Below, piece by piece: positions 1,549-12,307 of a stretch of 64,000 bases of DNA. Numbering within the stretch: the first letter of the stretch is position 1; each line of letters starts with the position of its first letter. Under the pieces are notes generated by a model. The model searched no databases. It saw nothing but the letters and a program-made list of their open reading frames with translations, and was not told where the DNA came from. Source of the stretch: an uncultured Bacilli bacterium (GTDB lineage Bacteria; Bacillota_I; Bacilli_A; RF39; UBA660); NCBI GenBank assembly GCA_934101865.1, contig CAKOSA010000001.1:22235-86234 (forward strand). Direction: 5' to 3'. The position numbers were made by a program, and so were the translations under genes.

Positions 1549-2756
1549 TGAAAATAGAAAAATTAAACCATAACGGTTTTGGTATCGGCTATATAGACGG
1601 TAAAGTAACTTTTGTAAAAAATACCCTAATAGGTGATGAAGTAGAAGTATTAATTACCAAAGAACATAAAACATATAATGAAGCAAAAGTAACAAAATAC
1701 TTAACCAAATCCCCATTACATAAAGTACCCATCTGTCCTTATGCAGATAAATGTGGTGGATGTACTTATCAAATGATGTCTTATGAAGAAGAATTATCCC
1801 AAAAACAAAAAGTAGTAGAGGAGCTATTAGGAAAAAAAGCCCAAATCATAAAATGCGATAACTATAATTACCGCAATAAAATAACCCTTAAAGTAAAGAA
1901 TGGTAAAATAGGCTTCTTTGCCGAAGGCACCCATAATCTAGTCAGTATAGATAAATGCTATTTATGTACAGAAAAAATAAATAAAATAATCAACGAGTTA
2001 CTAACTATCGACCTCTCTAACATCTATGAAATAACCATTAGAGAAGGCGAAGAAACCATAGTAATACTATATAATACAGGACCAACAAACGTAGATATAT
2101 CCCATTTAAAAAATGCCGATAATATCCTCTTGAAAGATGAAGATTATCACGTATTAAAAGGCAAATCATCCATAACCACTAACATTGGTAAGTACAAATA
2201 CATAATAGAAAAAGACAGTTTCTTTCAAGTCAACAAATACTTAACTCAAAAGCTCTACGATAAAGCTCTCGAATACCTCCATCCCCGTGATGACGATGTT
2301 CTTCTTGACCTCTATTGTGGAGCCGGAACCATTGGCATATACTTCGCATCCAGTGTAGAAAGAGTAATCGGTATTGAACTAAATGAATATTCCGTTGCCT
2401 CAGCTAATAAAAATAAAAATCTAAACAATATTCCCAATATAAATTTTATAAATGCAGATGTAGCCAAGGCCATAAATAAAGTGAAAATGGCCACCAAAGT
2501 AGTGGTCGACCCCCCACGTAAAGGCCTCGATAAAAACACCATAAACAACATTAAAAGACTGTACCCCGCCCGCATAATTTACATCTCCTGCAACGTGCAT
2601 ACCCTCGCCCGCGATATTAAACTGTTGGAAGATTTTTATACTTTGGAAAGTTACACTATCGTGGATATGTTTAAAGGTACATATCACACTGAGATTGTTT
2701 CTGTATTACAAAGAAAAGAAGAAGCGGAATTAATATGGAAAACAAATACAATCTAA
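1548..2756 (+). CDS. 23S rRNA (uracil-C5)-methyltransferase, RumA/RlmD family, with TRAM domain and a 4-Cys cluster
   Basis: N-terminal TRAM-like domain, Cys cluster (CPYADKCGGCTYQ), and a SAM-dependent methyltransferase fold (DLYCGAGTIG, PPRKG). The start overlaps the obg stop by 1 nt. Confidence 0.85.
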   Translation: MKIEKLNHNGFGIGYIDGKVTFVKNTLIGDEVEVLITKEHKTYNEAKVTKYLTKSPLHKVPICPYADKCGGCTYQMMSYEEELSQKQKVVEELLGKKAQIIKCDNYNYRNKITLKVKNGKIGFFAEGTHNLVSIDKCYLCTEKINKIINELLTIDLSNIYEITIREGEETIVILYNTGPTNVDISHLKNADNILLKDEDYHVLKGKSSITTNIGKYKYIIEKDSFFQVNKYLTQKLYDKALEYLHPRDDDVLLDLYCGAGTIGIYFASSVERVIGIELNEYSVASANKNKNLNNIPNINFINADVAKAINKVKMATKVVVDPPRKGLDKNTINNIKRLYPARIIYISCNVHTLARDIKLLEDFYTLESYTIVDMFKGTYHTEIVSVLQRKEEAELIWKTNTI

Positions 2757-3400
2757 CAAGAGAGCAAAATGTTTTTGTAGCCAAGAGAAACATTGTTGAC
2801 TATATATGGAAAAGTGCAAACCTAGAAGGAATTGCTGTTACCTATCCCGAGACGCAGGCCATTTACGATGGTGGCATAGTAAACGGATTAACAGTAGATA
2901 AAATAATAACCATAAATAATCTAAAATATGCGTGGGAGTTTATTTTAGAAAACAAAGACATAGAATACGATTATAAAGCATTATGTCAAATTCATAAACT
3001 AACCTGTGATAAATTAGTCCTAGACCAAAACTTGGGAAGAATAAGAACTACCCCCGTAAATATAGGTGGAACAACTTGGAAACCCCCATTTCCCATAGAA
3101 AGTCAAATAAAAGAAGAGCTAGAAACATTAATAAATGAAGAAACCAAAACTAAAACCGAAATAGCTCTTGATGTAATGTTGTGGATAATGCGAAGGCAAA
3201 TGTTCAAGGGTGGTAATAAAAGAGTGGCAATGCTCTTTGCTAATAAAATAATGATAGATAATGGCTGTGGCATAATAACCATATCACAAGATAATCAAAG
3301 CACTTTTTTTGAAAAATTAATCAAATACTATGAAACAGGTGACAACCAAGATATAAAAAACTGGCTCTATGAAACCAGTATCGACGGAATGAACCTATAA
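2735..3400 (+). CDS. Fic/Doc-family protein with a degenerate Doc-type motif (QMFKGGNKR) lacking the catalytic His
   Basis: Fic-fold-like sequence with MFKGGNKRVAML where Fic/Doc proteins carry HxFx(D/N)(A/G)NKR. The His position is Gln. Overlaps the end of the methyltransferase gene by 22 nt. Confidence 0.55.
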   Translation: MENKYNLTREQNVFVAKRNIVDYIWKSANLEGIAVTYPETQAIYDGGIVNGLTVDKIITINNLKYAWEFILENKDIEYDYKALCQIHKLTCDKLVLDQNLGRIRTTPVNIGGTTWKPPFPIESQIKEELETLINEETKTKTEIALDVMLWIMRRQMFKGGNKRVAMLFANKIMIDNGCGIITISQDNQSTFFEKLIKYYETGDNQDIKNWLYETSIDGMNL

Positions 3401-7399: not shown

Positions 7400-7993
7400 A
7401 TGAATTTATATATAGATTGTGACGGAGTAATACTAAATACCATAATAATATCATATCGCAAATTACGTAAGTTAGGCTACCTAGATGAAAACTATAAACA
7501 AATAAAAGAATATGCTGACGAAATAAGAGGCTACTATGCAACCATCGATTGGAGCGAACTATTAAAAGAAGCTGACGAAATAAATAATAGCATAAGTGCC
7601 ATAAGAAAAATAGTAGATAGCGGTAAATTTCAAAATGTCCAAATACTAACCCATATCAATTCAGCAGGGGAGGGTGTAGTAAAAAAAGAATATTTTGAAA
7701 AACTATTACCCGATGTTCCCGTAAGACTAGTAGCTAAGCACGTCTCTAAGGCTGATGCTGTTGACCCAACCAACTCTATTCTAATTGATGACCACTCTCC
7801 CAACTTAGTAGACTTCGAAGAAAAAGGCGGTCTTGGAATAAAGTTTGACGAAGATAAAACCGAAGATTATAGGTCTCATATTCAAAATGGCAAAACTTAT
7901 GAATTTCTAACTATTAACAATTTAGAAGATATTTTAAACATTAACTTTGAACTAAATAAACCTAGTGTTAAAGTAAAACAGAAAACCTTTTAG
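7400..7993 (+). CDS. HAD-superfamily 5'(3')-deoxyribonucleotidase-like protein (NT5C/YorS family)
   Basis: N-terminal DxDGV motif (LYIDCDGVILNT), about 197 aa, with a downstream Asp-rich motif (ILIDDH). RBS AAGGAGG. Confidence 0.55.
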   Translation: MNLYIDCDGVILNTIIISYRKLRKLGYLDENYKQIKEYADEIRGYYATIDWSELLKEADEINNSISAIRKIVDSGKFQNVQILTHINSAGEGVVKKEYFEKLLPDVPVRLVAKHVSKADAVDPTNSILIDDHSPNLVDFEEKGGLGIKFDEDKTEDYRSHIQNGKTYEFLTINNLEDILNINFELNKPSVKVKQKTF

Positions 7994-8006
7994 GAGGTTT
8001 TTTATT
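7982..8006 (+). terminator. Hairpin plus T-run after the nucleotidase gene; the loop contains the AGGAGG RBS of the downstream fic gene
   Basis: AAAACC-TTTTAGGA-GGTTTT followed by TTATTT. Stem 6 bp. Read directly. Confidence 0.4.
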
Positions 8007-8010
8007 TGAA

Positions 8011-8730
8011 ATGAAGGTGAATATTATTAATGTATACAAAGAATTAATAAAAAAAGAAAATATATACAACTATACAAATATAACTATTTCTTATAATTCC
8101 AGTAAAATAGAAAATAGTTCTCTTTCTCTTGACGAAACCAAAGAAATATATTACACTCCTTTTCTAACCACTACTACTAATAAAGTAATTAACCTAGATG
8201 ACCTTATCGAAATGAAAAATCATTTCAAACTATTTGATTATTGCCTAAGCATAGTAGATGCCCCTCTAACCAAAGAAATAATAATAGAGATGAATAAAAT
8301 ACTAAAAAGAAATACAAGTGATGAAGACAATCCCCGTTACAACGTCGGTGGCTTTAAAACCATTCCCAATGTAATAGGAATAATAAATGTCATTCACACA
8401 TCATCTCCCGAAGACGTTGAAAAAGACCTAGATAACTTACTAAAAAGTTATCATAATAAACAAACAATAACCCTTGAAGACATAATATATTTTCACTACA
8501 ATTTTGAAAAAATACATCCCTTTGGTTATGGAAATGGCCGTGTAGGCCGTATGATAATGTTTAAAGAATGCCTAAAAAACAATATAATGCCCTTTATCGT
8601 CCTAGATAAAGACAAACCTTATTATATGAGAGGACTAAAAAATTATAATGAAGATAAAATGTTCCTCATAGATACCATAAAATATGAACAAGACCTATAC
8701 AAAAAAATAGTAACAGAAATGATAAACTAA
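8011..8730 (+). CDS. Fic-family protein (putative AMPylase/adenylyltransferase)
   Basis: Fic motif HPFGYGNGRVGR matches HPFx[D/E]GNGRxxR except that the acidic position is Tyr. Confidence 0.8.
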   Translation: MKVNIINVYKELIKKENIYNYTNITISYNSSKIENSSLSLDETKEIYYTPFLTTTTNKVINLDDLIEMKNHFKLFDYCLSIVDAPLTKEIIIEMNKILKRNTSDEDNPRYNVGGFKTIPNVIGIINVIHTSSPEDVEKDLDNLLKSYHNKQTITLEDIIYFHYNFEKIHPFGYGNGRVGRMIMFKECLKNNIMPFIVLDKDKPYYMRGLKNYNEDKMFLIDTIKYEQDLYKKIVTEMIN

Positions 8731-8742
8731 ATAAATAACCAT

Positions 8743-8786
8743 AATATTAGTTACTTAGTATCTTCTAAATAACTAATATTTTTTTA
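8743..8786 (+). terminator. Rho-independent terminator after fic
   Basis: 16-bp inverted repeat AATATTAGTTACTTAG / CTAAATAACTAATATT with one mismatch and a 7-nt loop, followed by TTTTTTT. Confidence 0.6.
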
Positions 8787-8843
8787 AATTTTAGGTTTAC
8801 ATTTCTACTTTTATATGCTAAAATATAAACAAAGGAGGAAACT

Positions 8844-9881
8844 ATGGATAAAATAGGAAAAAATTTAAAAAAAATAAGATTACTAAAAAATCTTTCCCTT
8901 AAAGAGGCTGGCCAACTATTAGGAATGAGTGCCACCGCCATAAACAAATACGAAAAAGGATATTTAATACCAAACTCATCAAAAGTAATAGAATTTGCCA
9001 ATGCCTATAACGTAAATTGTATCGATATACTAAGAGTATACGAAGAACCAGAGTTAAAGTTTACATCATTTAAAAAGAATGAAAAATTAACCGAGAAAAA
9101 ATTAGAAGTTTTAAAAATGGTAATACAAGAAGAAGTAGCAAAATATTTAGAAGTCATAGAATTAAACTCAATAACTGCCCAAAATATCTCTCTAAGGAAA
9201 TACAAATGTAGTACACTAGAAGATGCTGAACAAGCCTCTAACAAATTTAGAGAACACATAAAACTATCAAGCAAATATCCCATATCAGATTTAATAAGCA
9301 TCCTTGAAAACCTAGGAATACTCATAATTGAACTAGAAGATAAAAATAACTACTATGAAGGGTTTGAAGGCTTTAGCGAAGTCGTAAACAACATACCCAT
9401 TATAGTTATGAAAGAAAACAGAACTGATGTCTGTAAATACAGATATACCTTAGCTCACGAACTTGCCCATCTAATTCTTAAAATAGAAAATCCCCAAGTT
9501 AACGAAGAAAAACTATGTGATAGGTTTGCTAGCAGTTTACTTATGCCCAAAGAAGCCGTAATAAACGAATTTGGAAATAATAGAAGAAACATAAGCATTT
9601 ATGAACTAGTAGTCTTTAAAATAGAATATAAAGTAAATTATAAAGATATAATAACAAGACTAAAAGAACTAAACATAATAACAGAATACCTATATAAAAA
9701 ATTAAGTACAAGTCATATTATAGATGAAGGAATAACCTTCCAACCCGAAGTATCACATCAGTTTAAAAAACTAGTTCATAAATTAGAAACTGATGATATA
9801 ATAACAATAAATAAAGCCTGTGAACTATTAGGAACTACTCCCAATGAATATAACCGAGAAAATAATAATTACAGATATTAA
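8844..9881 (+). CDS. XRE-family HTH regulator fused to an ImmA/IrrE (COG2856, DUF955) zinc-metallopeptidase domain
   Basis: N-terminal HTH_XRE (LKKIRLLKNLSLKEAGQLLGMSATAINKYEKG). The C-terminal domain carries HEXXH (YTLAHELAHLIL) in the ImmA/IrrE context. Preceded by a TTTACA - 17 - TGcTAAAAT promoter. Confidence 0.8.
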   Translation: MDKIGKNLKKIRLLKNLSLKEAGQLLGMSATAINKYEKGYLIPNSSKVIEFANAYNVNCIDILRVYEEPELKFTSFKKNEKLTEKKLEVLKMVIQEEVAKYLEVIELNSITAQNISLRKYKCSTLEDAEQASNKFREHIKLSSKYPISDLISILENLGILIIELEDKNNYYEGFEGFSEVVNNIPIIVMKENRTDVCKYRYTLAHELAHLILKIENPQVNEEKLCDRFASSLLMPKEAVINEFGNNRRNISIYELVVFKIEYKVNYKDIITRLKELNIITEYLYKKLSTSHIIDEGITFQPEVSHQFKKLVHKLETDDIITINKACELLGTTPNEYNRENNNYRY

Positions 9882-10362
9882 CATAATTACCGATTTAGAC
9901 AACGCAGGCATTTTAGAAGAATTTATAACCATAAAAAACGTATACGTAAGTGATTTAATAAAAACAGATGAACTAAATCAAAAAACTGGTAATATAAATA
10001 CAATCAAAAAGGCCAAAGTAATAAGTGCCACCGACAAGCAAGTTTTAGAAGCAGTAAACTTATCGCTTATAAATAAAAAGTTATCAATGTACGATTTATT
10101 AAATTATGTGTTAGCTAGGGACAATAATTGCATTTTAGCAACGGGTGATAATAGATTAAAACAATATGCAGAATTAAATGATGTCGAAGTAATAAGAACT
10201 CTAAAAATAATAAAATTAATGACAACGCACAGTATAATATCCAAAGAAGTTGCTATTATCTCTTGTCAAAAACTAAAAGAAAATCCAAGGACAAGAATAC
10301 CCATTAACAGCATAGAACAAGTAATCATTTCCTTAACCGAAGAATTAACATCAATTAGCTAA
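9844..10362 (+). CDS. Hypothetical protein, possibly a PIN-like nuclease; candidate toxin/effector partner of the XRE-ImmA gene
   Basis: Overlaps the preceding gene by 38 nt. First strand IIITDINII with Asp, then TDK and GDN acidic motifs spaced as in PIN folds. The assignment is tentative. Confidence 0.4.
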   Translation: MNITEKIIITDINIITDLDNAGILEEFITIKNVYVSDLIKTDELNQKTGNINTIKKAKVISATDKQVLEAVNLSLINKKLSMYDLLNYVLARDNNCILATGDNRLKQYAELNDVEVIRTLKIIKLMTTHSIISKEVAIISCQKLKENPRTRIPINSIEQVIISLTEELTSIS

Positions 10363-10476
10363 CAAAATAACTACCACCCATTTTATCAGTTGACCCTCAA
10401 TCCCAAAAAACTTTCCATTTTTAGTTTACAAAAAAACATAAATATGATATATTAAATATAGACAGTAGGTGAGTTT

Positions 10477-10791
10477 ATGAGAAGTTTTTTTAGTGCCCTA
10501 TGGCGCCTTGGAATATATGTCCTCTTAATAGTAATACTATACATCGTAATCATATACAAAGTAAAATACGAAGGAATAGAAGACCCCACTAAATACCTCT
10601 ATTTCTATAAATGCAGTGGCAATATCTGCACCACCAGTGAAACCATAACAAACTACCTCTCTAAGTACGAATGTGATAAAACATGCCCTATAGTAATAGA
10701 GTTCCAAGAAAACAGTAAAGTAGAACTCCAACACAATAACTCCATATTCACCTATAACTATGAAAAGGGAGAAATAATAAATGAAGAATAA
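10477..10791 (+). CDS. Small Cys-containing membrane-anchored protein
   Basis: 104 aa with an N-terminal TM helix and five Cys (CSGNIC, CDKTC). Overlaps the start of the TasA-like gene by 11 nt. Confidence 0.4.
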   Translation: MRSFFSALWRLGIYVLLIVILYIVIIYKVKYEGIEDPTKYLYFYKCSGNICTTSETITNYLSKYECDKTCPIVIEFQENSKVELQHNNSIFTYNYEKGEIINEE

Positions 10792-12307
10792 AAGAAAAAA
10801 TATAATAATACTATTAATATTAATACTCCTATTAACCCTAGGAATAGGCATAACCTATGCCATCTTTAAATGGACTAGTTCTAACTCTGATATAACCTTT
10901 AATATTGAAGGCTGTTATGTAACCTATGATGCCGGAGGAGATATAACAGGAGCATCCCTAGGTCCAGCCCTATCCAAAGATGATACCAATAATGTACTAT
11001 CCAAAAAAATAACCCTATCCCCAGAATGTAGTGGAGTAACAGCCAATCTTACCCTAAAAGTAAATGAGATAGCACCTGAACTAAAAAACACTTCCTTTAT
11101 ATGGTCCCTATATGAAGGAAATACCAAAGTATCAAATGGTAACTTCGCTGATGCAACTACTAATAAAGTATACACTCTTCTAAGTACTAAAACCCTAACA
11201 GAAAAAACTACTACAACTTATGCCCTCTATATCTATATAGATGGAACTGTCGATAATGATAGTAGTATGGGTGGTAAAAGTTTTAAGTTTACACTTGGAG
11301 CAAGTGGAGAGAATGCACTGCGTAAGGAGCCACCTGCTAACTTTGTAGAGGAGTTAGATGACGGAACTACTGGTGATAGCGGAAGTGGGGTGTACAAAGT
11401 ACAGCATAGCGCTATTGCGAGTGGTGGTAGTGCAACAGGTAGTGAAATACCAGCCGTAACTGATTATAGATATTATGGACCTAATCCTAATAATTATATA
11501 TGTTTAGATATGGAAGGTGGTAGTACTTGTCCTGATAAACATTTATATAGAATAATAGGAAGTATCTATGAAGAATTAGAAAATACTAAGAGAATAAAGG
11601 TAATAAAGGCAACACCTCTTACAGATGGAAATACAACAACCTATTATTGGAATAGTGACGATAATAATATTTGGGCTACTATTACTAGTGGTAATTATAG
11701 TAATAGTTTAACAAGTGGAGCAAGTTTAATGAAACTCTTAAATAGTGGGGCATGGTGGAATGGAACAAGTGCTAGTTATCATACTGAGGAGAATCCGATG
11801 GGAACTACAGTTAATTTTGCTAATTATAAATTAAGTGATAAGGCAAAGAGTTATATAACTACAAGTAGATATTATTTAGGAGGAGATAGAACAGCAAATG
11901 GAGTGATGACTAATGAATTCTACGCTTATGAAAGGGGGACTACTAGGTATGGTACGAATAGACCATTATATTGGGATGGAATGGTAGGACTTATGTATCC
12001 AAGTGATTATGGGTATGCGGCTGGTAATACTTGTGTAACGGAGACTAACTTAAGTTATTTTGCAGGGGGATATGAAAAAGAATGTATGAATAAGGATTGG
12101 CTTTATATTTCAAAGACTGATCAGTGGTTAATGTCACCTGTTTCGGGCGATTCCTACTGTGCTTTTAGCATTACCTCGAGAGGCGACATTGCTAACGGCT
12201 ACTATTCCACAGATGCTACTTCAGTCCGTCCCACCTTCTACCTCAAATCAGACATCTCCATAACTGACGGAGAAGGAACTGAGACTAATCCCTACATCCT
12301 ATCCTAA
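10781..12307 (+). CDS. TasA/camelysin-like protein with a SipW-cognate-type signal anchor, fused to a conserved about 330-aa Cys-containing C-terminal domain (paralog A)
   Basis: N-terminus KNKRK + TM + ITYAIFKW...ITFNIEG resembles SipW-cognate signals (GTFAYFSD...TFxxGTLDL). The C-terminal half shares DDGTTGDSGSGVYKV, DYRYYGxNxNNYICLDMEGxSTCPD, IKVIKATPLTDG, YWDGxVGLMYPSDYGYAAGN and RPTFYLKS blocks with the 26903..28426 protein. Confidence 0.6.
   Translation: MKNKRKNIIILLILILLLTLGIGITYAIFKWTSSNSDITFNIEGCYVTYDAGGDITGASLGPALSKDDTNNVLSKKITLSPECSGVTANLTLKVNEIAPELKNTSFIWSLYEGNTKVSNGNFADATTNKVYTLLSTKTLTEKTTTTYALYIYIDGTVDNDSSMGGKSFKFTLGASGENALRKEPPANFVEELDDGTTGDSGSGVYKVQHSAIASGGSATGSEIPAVTDYRYYGPNPNNYICLDMEGGSTCPDKHLYRIIGSIYEELENTKRIKVIKATPLTDGNTTTYYWNSDDNNIWATITSGNYSNSLTSGASLMKLLNSGAWWNGTSASYHTEENPMGTTVNFANYKLSDKAKSYITTSRYYLGGDRTANGVMTNEFYAYERGTTRYGTNRPLYWDGMVGLMYPSDYGYAAGNTCVTETNLSYFAGGYEKECMNKDWLYISKTDQWLMSPVSGDSYCAFSITSRGDIANGYYSTDATSVRPTFYLKSDISITDGEGTETNPYILS

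Follow-up and report, generated by a model that had tools for sequence, protein, structure and literature searches.

Two overlapping plus-strand genes in a 64,000-nucleotide (nt) stretch of contig CAKOSA010000001.1 from an uncultured Bacilli bacterium (the whole stretch is hereafter the window) form a compact cassette. Open reading frame 1 (ORF1) encodes an XRE helix-turn-helix (HTH) domain fused to an ImmA/IrrE-type peptidase, and ORF2 encodes a predicted PIN nuclease. We consider it likely that this cassette is an autonomous bicistronic type II toxin–antitoxin (TA) system of the Rosmer-like kind, in which the antitoxin is an XRE–ImmA protein, with the PIN RNase as its toxin. Toxicity of the pair, its neutralisation and abortive infection are all predicted. 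Both genes lie where the original prediction, made from the letters of the window, had placed them, and they share 38 nt in different frames, an overlap through which their translation is probably coupled.

ORF1 was claimed to be a fusion of an XRE HTH with an ImmA/IrrE HEXXH domain, and the profile searches agree. Pfam finds HTH_3 at residues 8–58 (E = 3.6e-12) and Peptidase_M78 at residues 155–251 (E = 3.1e-09), and the HEXXH motif is intact as HELAH (residues 205–209, nt 9456–9470). In an AlphaFold2 (AF2) model with a mean predicted local distance difference test score (pLDDT) of 82, the HTH leads into a long helix, which is followed by a peptidase domain of alpha/beta structure and a C-terminal region made up of helices alone. 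The domain plan is an XRE HTH (residues 8–58), a helical linker, an M78/ImmA–IrrE zinc-peptidase domain (residues ~131–255) and a helical C-terminal region (residues 256–345). The best PDB fold matches of the model are IrrE (3dti), CapP (7t5t), ImmR (7t8i), DdrO, CapH and C-proteins. Within PADLOC, ORF1 matched 14 RmrA models over residues ~5–290 (E = 1.9e-32 to 1e-16) and, more weakly, the CapP and CapH models, in keeping with the earlier view of COG2856–Xre proteins as a scaffold of predicted TA and defence systems. The NCBIfam spr1629 repressor/antitoxin family (NF052239) aligned with residues 4–284 at 82.2 bits (E = 3.9e-23) against a cutoff of 335 bits, and by this comparison ORF1 is a homologue of spr1629 (RipB) and not an equivalog. 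H205, E206 and H209 are at least 98% conserved in 72 ORF1 orthologues, which also keep an FAxxLLMP motif. On these matches we class ORF1 as a Rosmer-type XRE–ImmA/IrrE fusion protein.

Proteins of this architecture are experimentally confirmed antitoxins in RosmerTA (bioRxiv 10.1101/2022.05.11.491447; PMC10440598), where delta-rmrA could not be transformed (bioRxiv 10.1101/2022.05.11.491447), and in RipAB, where the XRE–ImmA protein RipB has that role (bioRxiv 10.1101/2025.09.02.673660). Stand-alone COG2856 proteins were not toxic (PMC4257102).

ORF2 begins with MNITEKIIITDINIITD and also contains an ATGDN motif. Its start at 9844 is supported because the N terminus MNIT.KIIITD is invariant in closer homologues. 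Searched alone, ORF2 reached 23.2 bits against the Pfam PIN model PF01850, just under the 23.6-bit cutoff and with only the C-terminal half of the model aligned; we therefore examined its PIN identity at the level of family and structure. A word-indexed search gave 414 homologues, nearly all 171 amino acids (aa) long, most of which carry PF11848/DUF3368 (precomputed assignments for homologues at 58–89% identity). An exhaustive HMMER search of 1.84 billion representatives gave 357 relatives, down to about 25% identity. In an alignment of 92 diverse full-length relatives (A2), PF01850 matched 67 and PF11848/DUF3368 matched 33, although PF11848 gave no match to the window ORF2 itself at E ≤ 0.1. 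The A2 profile retrieved the solved PIN structures TTHA0540, MJ1533, AF0591, VapC 7by2 and PAE2754.

The AF2 model of ORF2 (pLDDT 94.2; predicted template modelling score 0.89) is an alpha/beta/alpha fold around a central parallel sheet of five strands, with a three-helix C-terminal extension (residues 119–170). Nearly all of the top 50 Foldseek matches in the PDB are PIN or PIN-like nucleases, among them VapC4, PAE2754, Rv0301, FitB, Nob1 and HARP RNase P, with probabilities up to 1.00 and target-normalised template modelling scores up to 0.65. Profile alignments superpose an acidic tetrad, D11 (nt 9874–9876), E43 (9970–9972), D84 (10093–10095) and D102 (10147–10149), on the acidic positions of VapC 7by2, PAE2754 and TTHA0540. 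All four residues are invariant in 21 close homologues, and across the 92 diverse relatives D11 and D84 remain invariant and D102 is at least 90% conserved. As all four are present and conserved, the active site is intact. Sequence and model together thus identify ORF2 as a predicted PIN-fold nuclease of the COG2405/DUF3368 clade. The PIN-like acidic motifs noticed in the original prediction do belong to a nuclease fold, but the DUF4411-type PIN domain suggested there gave way to COG2405/DUF3368, as PF14367/DUF4411 matched neither ORF2 nor any of the 92 relatives.

Both genes are served by one sigma-70-type promoter, which carries a conserved palindrome. It comprises a −35 element TTTACA (8796–8801), a 17-nt spacer, a TG at 8816–8817 and a −10 element TAAAAT (8819–8824), and the promoter scan scored it 10 out of 12 over 8796–8824, with extended TG. 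The core of an inverted repeat lies over it (GTTTA at 8795–8799 and TAAAC at 8826–8830). When upstream regions were aligned, a block reading GTTTAC(A)...TGnTAAAAT-AT(A)AAC was present in all 71 cassettes, and sequences farther upstream were unrelated. The most informative positions are symmetric and 35 nt apart, G(0) in 71/71 and C(35) in 69/71, and the consensus arms TAGTTTACATTT and AAATATAAACTA, complementary at 11 of 12 positions, bracket the −35 and −10 elements. The cassette copy is the sole one in the window, the pattern occurring elsewhere in the 64 kb no more than expected by chance. We infer that the palindrome is a candidate autoregulatory operator that travels with the cassette. 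A separate internal promoter for PIN within ORF1, raised by the promoter scan at 9775–9802, was rejected, since no more than 4 of 72 orthologues have TATAAT at the corresponding site.

These features would also suit a transcription-only switch, a possible but unlikely alternative. ORF1 would then be a LexA-like or ImmR/ImmA-like self-cleaving repressor that silences PIN with no neutralisation at the protein level, and PIN a stress- or phage-induced effector, comparable to the control by CapH/CapP of the cyclic-oligonucleotide-based anti-phage signalling system (CBASS). The operator-like palindrome over every promoter and the conserved HEXXH agree with such a switch, as do the fold matches IrrE, CapP, ImmR, DdrO and CapH, all of which belong to transcriptional derepression systems. 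In one locus (L064), moreover, PIN is intact though the promoter and most of ORF1 are gone, and a regulatory cascade of this kind was proposed by Makarova 2009 (PMC2701414). However, the overlap implies co-translation from one mRNA, so that PIN would be made whenever ORF1 is made. The last 90 residues of ORF1, which have no known regulatory role, are about as conserved in the 72 orthologues as the catalytic domains, and this C-terminal region persists in relatives at 29% identity. In related systems, moreover, XRE–ImmA proteins provided in trans neutralise the toxins, which are what makes these proteins essential (bioRxiv 10.1101/2025.09.02.673660; bioRxiv 10.1101/2022.05.11.491447).

The cassette is dispensable and polymorphic within one species. 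Of some 1,100 collection blocks with an identical 104-aa downstream neighbour protein, we read 24 contigs, and 21 same-species contigs are accounted for here. Their constant backbone runs from tsaC through two hypothetical proteins and an NT5C-like gene to the variable part, followed by the 104-aa and ~500-aa proteins, vanZ, ybeY, dgk, queA and dnaG. The pair is present in roughly 13 contigs (L088 and nine similar places, L090 and one more, and L091) and absent from roughly 6, with the Fic gene retained in L087 and L089 and neither an intact Fic gene nor the pair in L092, L093 and one more, and L096. Two contigs, L094 and L095, have ORF1 without PIN. Comparison of synteny between tsaC and ybeY thus reveals presence and absence of the pair among contigs of the same species and not a fixed core position.

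The breakpoints are sharp. The whole-cassette indel measures 1,598 bp between two copies of AAATAACTA (Table 1), and the empty alleles L087, L089, L092, L093 and L096 retain a single imperfect copy, CTTCTAAATAAACCACC. Because the right arm of an AT-rich hairpin with T-run after the Fic gene (8743–8753 / 8770–8780) lies inside the indel, the occupied allele is probably the older state, from which the empty alleles probably arose by microhomology deletion. Transposon-like mobility, with the 9-bp repeat as a target-site duplication, was considered and rejected: the longest repeats shared by left and right flanks across 71 loci had a mean length of 7.04, compared with 6.85 in shuffled pairings, and as they are no longer than in the shuffled pairings we regard the 9-bp repeat as local microhomology. 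The PIN-only deletion in L094 and L095 removed 481 bp between the two TAACA sites at 9879 and 10360, from stop codon to stop codon, leaving ORF1 full length.

The Fic gene directly upstream of the cassette (8011–8730), which matches the PADLOC candidate defence family PDC-S04 (1.2e-85), is itself polymorphic, being intact in some contigs and internally deleted in others (~8198–8586 or ~8067–8512). The Fic gene and the XRE–M78/PIN pair vary independently of each other in the species.

Beyond this species, the ORF1/PIN pair is a self-contained, autonomous cassette of 1.6 kb. One scan of species-representative genomes gave 78 cassette loci, and all hosts in it are uncultured gut Bacilli labelled 'Tenericutes' or 'Mycoplasma sp. 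CAG:472', with complete chromosomes of 1.34–1.54 Mb. NCBI places two named members of this lineage in Mycoplasmatota and Bacilli incertae sedis; we take it to be GTDB RF39. In nearly all of these loci the two genes lie side by side and overlap by 32 or 38 nt, and the 65 loci in which both neighbours could be resolved show 54 distinct neighbour combinations. The neighbour combinations come from a nearest-neighbour census, used in place of single-linkage grouping by shared flanks, which had chained all loci together. No conserved third gene was found, no flanking family occurring in more than 9 loci. A Fic protein as third component was rejected, as a Fic gene lies directly downstream in five loci only and varies independently of the pair within the species. 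In those five (L017, at 8533–9207, L018, L029, L033 and L039) the Fic-family gene lies 10–17 nt 3′ of PIN on the same strand, which may represent a recurrent association or a small shared defence island in one synteny group. At L070 (6215–6663, minus strand) and about 12 related loci the cassette adjoins a conserved divergent gene pair that encodes a very basic 41-aa protein and a membrane protein of 107 aa. The intergenic DNA that separates this pair from the cassette is also conserved, and Rfam has no match to it.

The same partner is retained by relatives at 25–34% identity. One such cassette lies on a conjugative plasmid of Sulfitobacter pontiacus (L097, NZ_CP084963, 39831–46220), where ORF1 is 29% and PIN 25% identical to the window proteins and the upstream protein is homologous to ORF1 over its full length. 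This copy adjoins divergently oriented SLATT-domain and nucleotidyltransferase genes, a defence-like neighbourhood.

ORF1 is also a full-length match to the PHROG transcriptional regulator family phrog_2439 (3.9e-45), which raises the prospect that the pair is a relic of prophage or integrative and conjugative element (ICE) immunity, an ImmR/ImmA-type repressor–antirepressor left with a passenger gene. COG2856–Xre operons are abundant in prophages (PMC2701414), and the GC content of the Fic/ORF1/PIN block (27.6–28.4%) is below that of its neighbours (about 30–36%). Such an origin is nevertheless very improbable. The cassette has no phage or integrase genes at its flanks, either in the window or in the 78 other loci; the nearest tRNA genes in the window (at 56.8 and 59.3 kb) lie over 46 kb from it; and selection has kept it intact as a unit with sharply defined borders. 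IMG/VR and INPHARED contain no relatives of PIN, and BFVD returned only generic PIN folds, on which grounds a phage origin of the cassette was rejected. Integration linked to a non-coding RNA or tRNA was likewise ruled out by the distance of the tRNAs and by the absence of Rfam matches at window positions 7500–11000; three related loci gave no Rfam match either.

Across species the two genes decay asymmetrically. Seven loci (L067, L071, L078, L079 and L081–L083) have an intact ORF1 beside a frameshifted or truncated PIN, and only relics of PIN are left in L085 and L086. One metagenome-assembled genome (MAG), CANRHY01, has two cassette copies (L037 and L079), with PIN split by a frameshift in one of them. 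The preferential loss of PIN fits a toxin/antidote relation, with two caveats: the opposite state exists in L025 and L064, and some frameshifts in MAGs are possibly assembly errors.

The deletion alleles and pseudogenes also bear on the idea of a lineage-specific housekeeping pair, in which small-genome gut Bacilli would need PIN for RNA processing and ORF1 would serve as the dedicated regulator of this nuclease. The presence of the pair in at least 78 species-level genomes of one lineage with complete chromosomes of 1.34–1.54 Mb would suit this, as would purifying selection, which acts on both genes: the ratio of nonsynonymous to synonymous substitution rates (dN/dS) among same-species alleles is 0.05–0.15 for ORF1, and it is about 0.17–0.19 for PIN in the more diverged same-species comparisons. 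However, the natural deletion alleles largely refute a housekeeping role, which is very improbable. About 6 of the 21 contigs lack the pair and 2 lack PIN alone, and PIN has decayed to a pseudogene in about 7 species. Nearly every species has the cassette at a different chromosomal position, and homologous cassettes occur on an alphaproteobacterial conjugative plasmid.

In a TA system of the Rosmer-like kind, the HTH of ORF1 would bind the promoter palindrome and repress its own operon, while ORF1, most likely through its C-terminal region, would keep the PIN nuclease inactive. A trigger, which may be phage infection, DNA damage or a lost supply of ORF1, would activate the peptidase or lead to degradation of ORF1; by analogy with ImmA/ImmR, IrrE/DdrO and CapP/CapH, the HTH-bearing protein would be cut, here possibly by self-cleavage. 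The operon would then be derepressed and PIN freed to cut cellular RNA (tRNA or rRNA, as VapC toxins do), and this cleavage would stop growth or abort infection. The phage-defence role is plausible and is the least secure step; an adjacent Fic gene with a PDC-S04 match and the low GC of the block are hints of defence. A more far-reaching version strikes us as quite doubtful. In it, ORF1 would be sensor, autorepressor and antitoxin in one polypeptide, cut in cis or in trans by its own M78 peptidase on a phage or stress cue, so that derepression and release of PIN occur in one step; the recombinase-free 1.6-kb module, running from promoter to stop codon, would be an unusually successful one, spread to dozens of chromosomal sites in uncultured gut Bacilli with reduced genomes, and may be among the few defence or addiction modules they have retained.

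Several points weigh against the TA interpretation. L025 combines an intact PIN with a frameshift in ORF1 near residue 290, and in L064 ORF1 is a start-less remnant of the last ~90 codons, the promoter region is gone and PIN is again intact; these are the only two loci in the opposite state, and they indicate that PIN may be tolerated without full-length ORF1. Measured between their centres, the palindrome half-sites are about 31 bp apart, an unusual spacing for one XRE dimer. ORF2 matched none of the PADLOC models, RmrT included, at E ≤ 0.1, and no mobile-element genes flank the cassette, nor are there viral relatives of PIN in the databases named above. Spread over at least 78 species of a reduced-genome lineage could also reflect a non-defence role. 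The searched literature gave no experimental study of an XRE–ImmA member with a PIN toxin, and for this family we infer toxicity, DNA binding, neutralisation, proteolysis, trigger, RNA target and phage defence alike.

Table 1. Coordinates of the cassette and its borders in the window
Feature	Position	Strand	Remarks and basis
9-bp direct repeat AAATAACTA, left copy	8767..8775	+	Left border of the 1,598-bp cassette indel; sequence reading
Cassette promoter and candidate palindromic operator	8793..8832	+	Promoter scan and upstream alignment; operator role putative
GGAGG ribosome-binding site of ORF1	8834..8838	+	Sequence reading; purine-rich block in the same place in orthologues
ORF1, XRE HTH–M78 peptidase, 345 aa, predicted autorepressor/antitoxin	8844..9881	+	Pfam, PADLOC, AF2 model
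ORF2, PIN nuclease of the COG2405/DUF3368 clade, 172 aa, predicted toxin	9844..10362	+	
TAACA at the ORF1 stop codon	9879..9883	+	Left breakpoint of the natural 481-bp PIN deletion (alleles L094, L095)
TAACA at the PIN stop codon	10360-10364	+	Other breakpoint of the 481-bp deletion
9-bp direct repeat AAATAACTA, right copy	10365..10373	+	3 nt past the PIN stop; right border of the cassette indel

The surrounding genes had been described as an accessory island, which holds in part. The Fic gene and the XRE–M78/PIN pair do vary, but the two hypothetical proteins, the NT5C-like gene, the 104-aa and ~508-aa proteins, tsaC, vanZ and ybeY are constant in ten same-species alleles and a sister lineage. 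The NT5C-like gene (7400–7993) has no Pfam match and matches the phage families phrog_420 and phrog_2643 (5′-3′ deoxyribonucleotidase, 1.6e-09); despite these phage-family matches it is constant in every strain examined. The ~508-aa protein (10781–12307), called TasA-like in the original prediction, gave only a weak DUF6273 match. It ranges from 490 to 521 aa and is only 74–79% identical between strains whose flanking genes are 92–100% identical; it evolves fast and is probably located at the cell surface. The trmA–GNAT junction (2735–3400) is a second variable spot, with a second Fic-family gene in the window and in L006, none in L009 and L087, and a 296-aa ORF6N-domain (PF10543) protein in its place in L092, L093 and L096. 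L089 has an extra gene for a 195-aa protein (836–1423) between the ybaK-like gene and the gene for a 254-aa membrane protein.

Among the closest known systems is RosmerTA RmrT/RmrA (Millman et al. 2022; Ernits et al. 2023), an anti-phage TA system. It too is a two-gene operon whose antitoxin-type protein joins an N-terminal XRE HTH to an ImmA/M78 zinc-peptidase, its toxins are swappable, and its RmrA models are those that ORF1 matches. By contrast, the toxin here is a PIN protein, whereas characterised RmrTs are proteins of unknown function, the membrane-depolarising RmrT-D5 and a DnaN-targeting toxin; ORF2 matches no RmrT model, and the cassette belongs to an uncultured gut lineage. Current hidden Markov model (HMM) definitions would not call the pair RosmerTA, since PADLOC has no model that matches ORF2. 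The cassette, known here from sequence and models, would work like a Rosmer-type TA without being a catalogued member. RipAB (Spr1630/Spr1629) of Streptococcus pneumoniae, a Rosmer-family TA, offers a second parallel: RipB, an XRE–ImmA fusion, antagonises the partner encoded in its operon, whose presence makes RipB essential, and residues 4–284 of ORF1 are homologous to the spr1629 model, although at 82 bits against the 335-bit cutoff. RipA, however, targets the sliding clamp and is not a PIN protein, and the gene names suggest that the toxin gene comes first there, whereas the antitoxin-type gene comes first here.

VapBC type II TA systems, including COG2886(UPF0175)–COG2405 pairs, share with the cassette a PIN toxin with an acidic tetrad, an overlapping antitoxin-type gene upstream and expected autoregulation. 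The upstream protein here is a 345-aa protein with a metallopeptidase domain and not a 70–100-aa ribbon-helix-helix, AbrB, Phd or UPF0175 antitoxin. Of the canonical type II traits, the upstream position, the overlap and the HTH with an operator-like palindrome are present, and the 345-aa size and peptidase domain are atypical. ImmR/ImmA of ICEBs1, DdrO/IrrE of Deinococcus and CapH/CapP of CBASS likewise pair a repressor of the XRE HTH type with an M78 HEXXH protease, which inactivates the repressor in response to stress. The cassette differs in having repressor and protease fused in a single polypeptide and, in the model, an all-helical C-terminal region in place of the GAF-like sensor of IrrE and CapP; it would also control a single PIN nuclease and not an element, a regulon or CBASS.

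The exact architecture of the cassette is that of the HTH–DUF955(COG2856) plus COG2405/DUF3368 PIN 'three-component' TA systems (PMC5499597, PMC2701414). Makarova 2009 (PMC2701414) and Matelska 2017 (PMC5499597) predicted a TA from a fused HTH–DUF955 gene that directly precedes a COG2405 PIN gene, the latter naming GYMC61_2169 of Geobacillus sp. Y412MC61. The arrangement also lies in the ImmA/Rosmer zone of the NetFlax network, in which ImmA is a hub node associated with PIN-like domains (Ernits 2023, PMC10440598). This PIN-toxin branch of XRE–ImmA systems has thus been predicted since 2009 and is uncharacterised as far as the searched literature shows; the cassette is a clean minimal example of it. 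It enlarges the so far sparse record of defence and addiction modules from uncultured gut Bacilli with small genomes and changes no concept. Whereas the earlier systems are bioinformatic predictions of the architecture, the additions here are the promoter with its conserved operator-like palindrome, the borders of the cassette, natural alleles that have lost the predicted toxin gene alone, and the distribution through an uncultured gut lineage with small genomes. With defined borders, a conserved candidate operator, intact catalytic sites and natural 'knock-out' alleles in human-gut metagenomes, the cassette offers a convenient model for toxin control by a fused repressor–protease.

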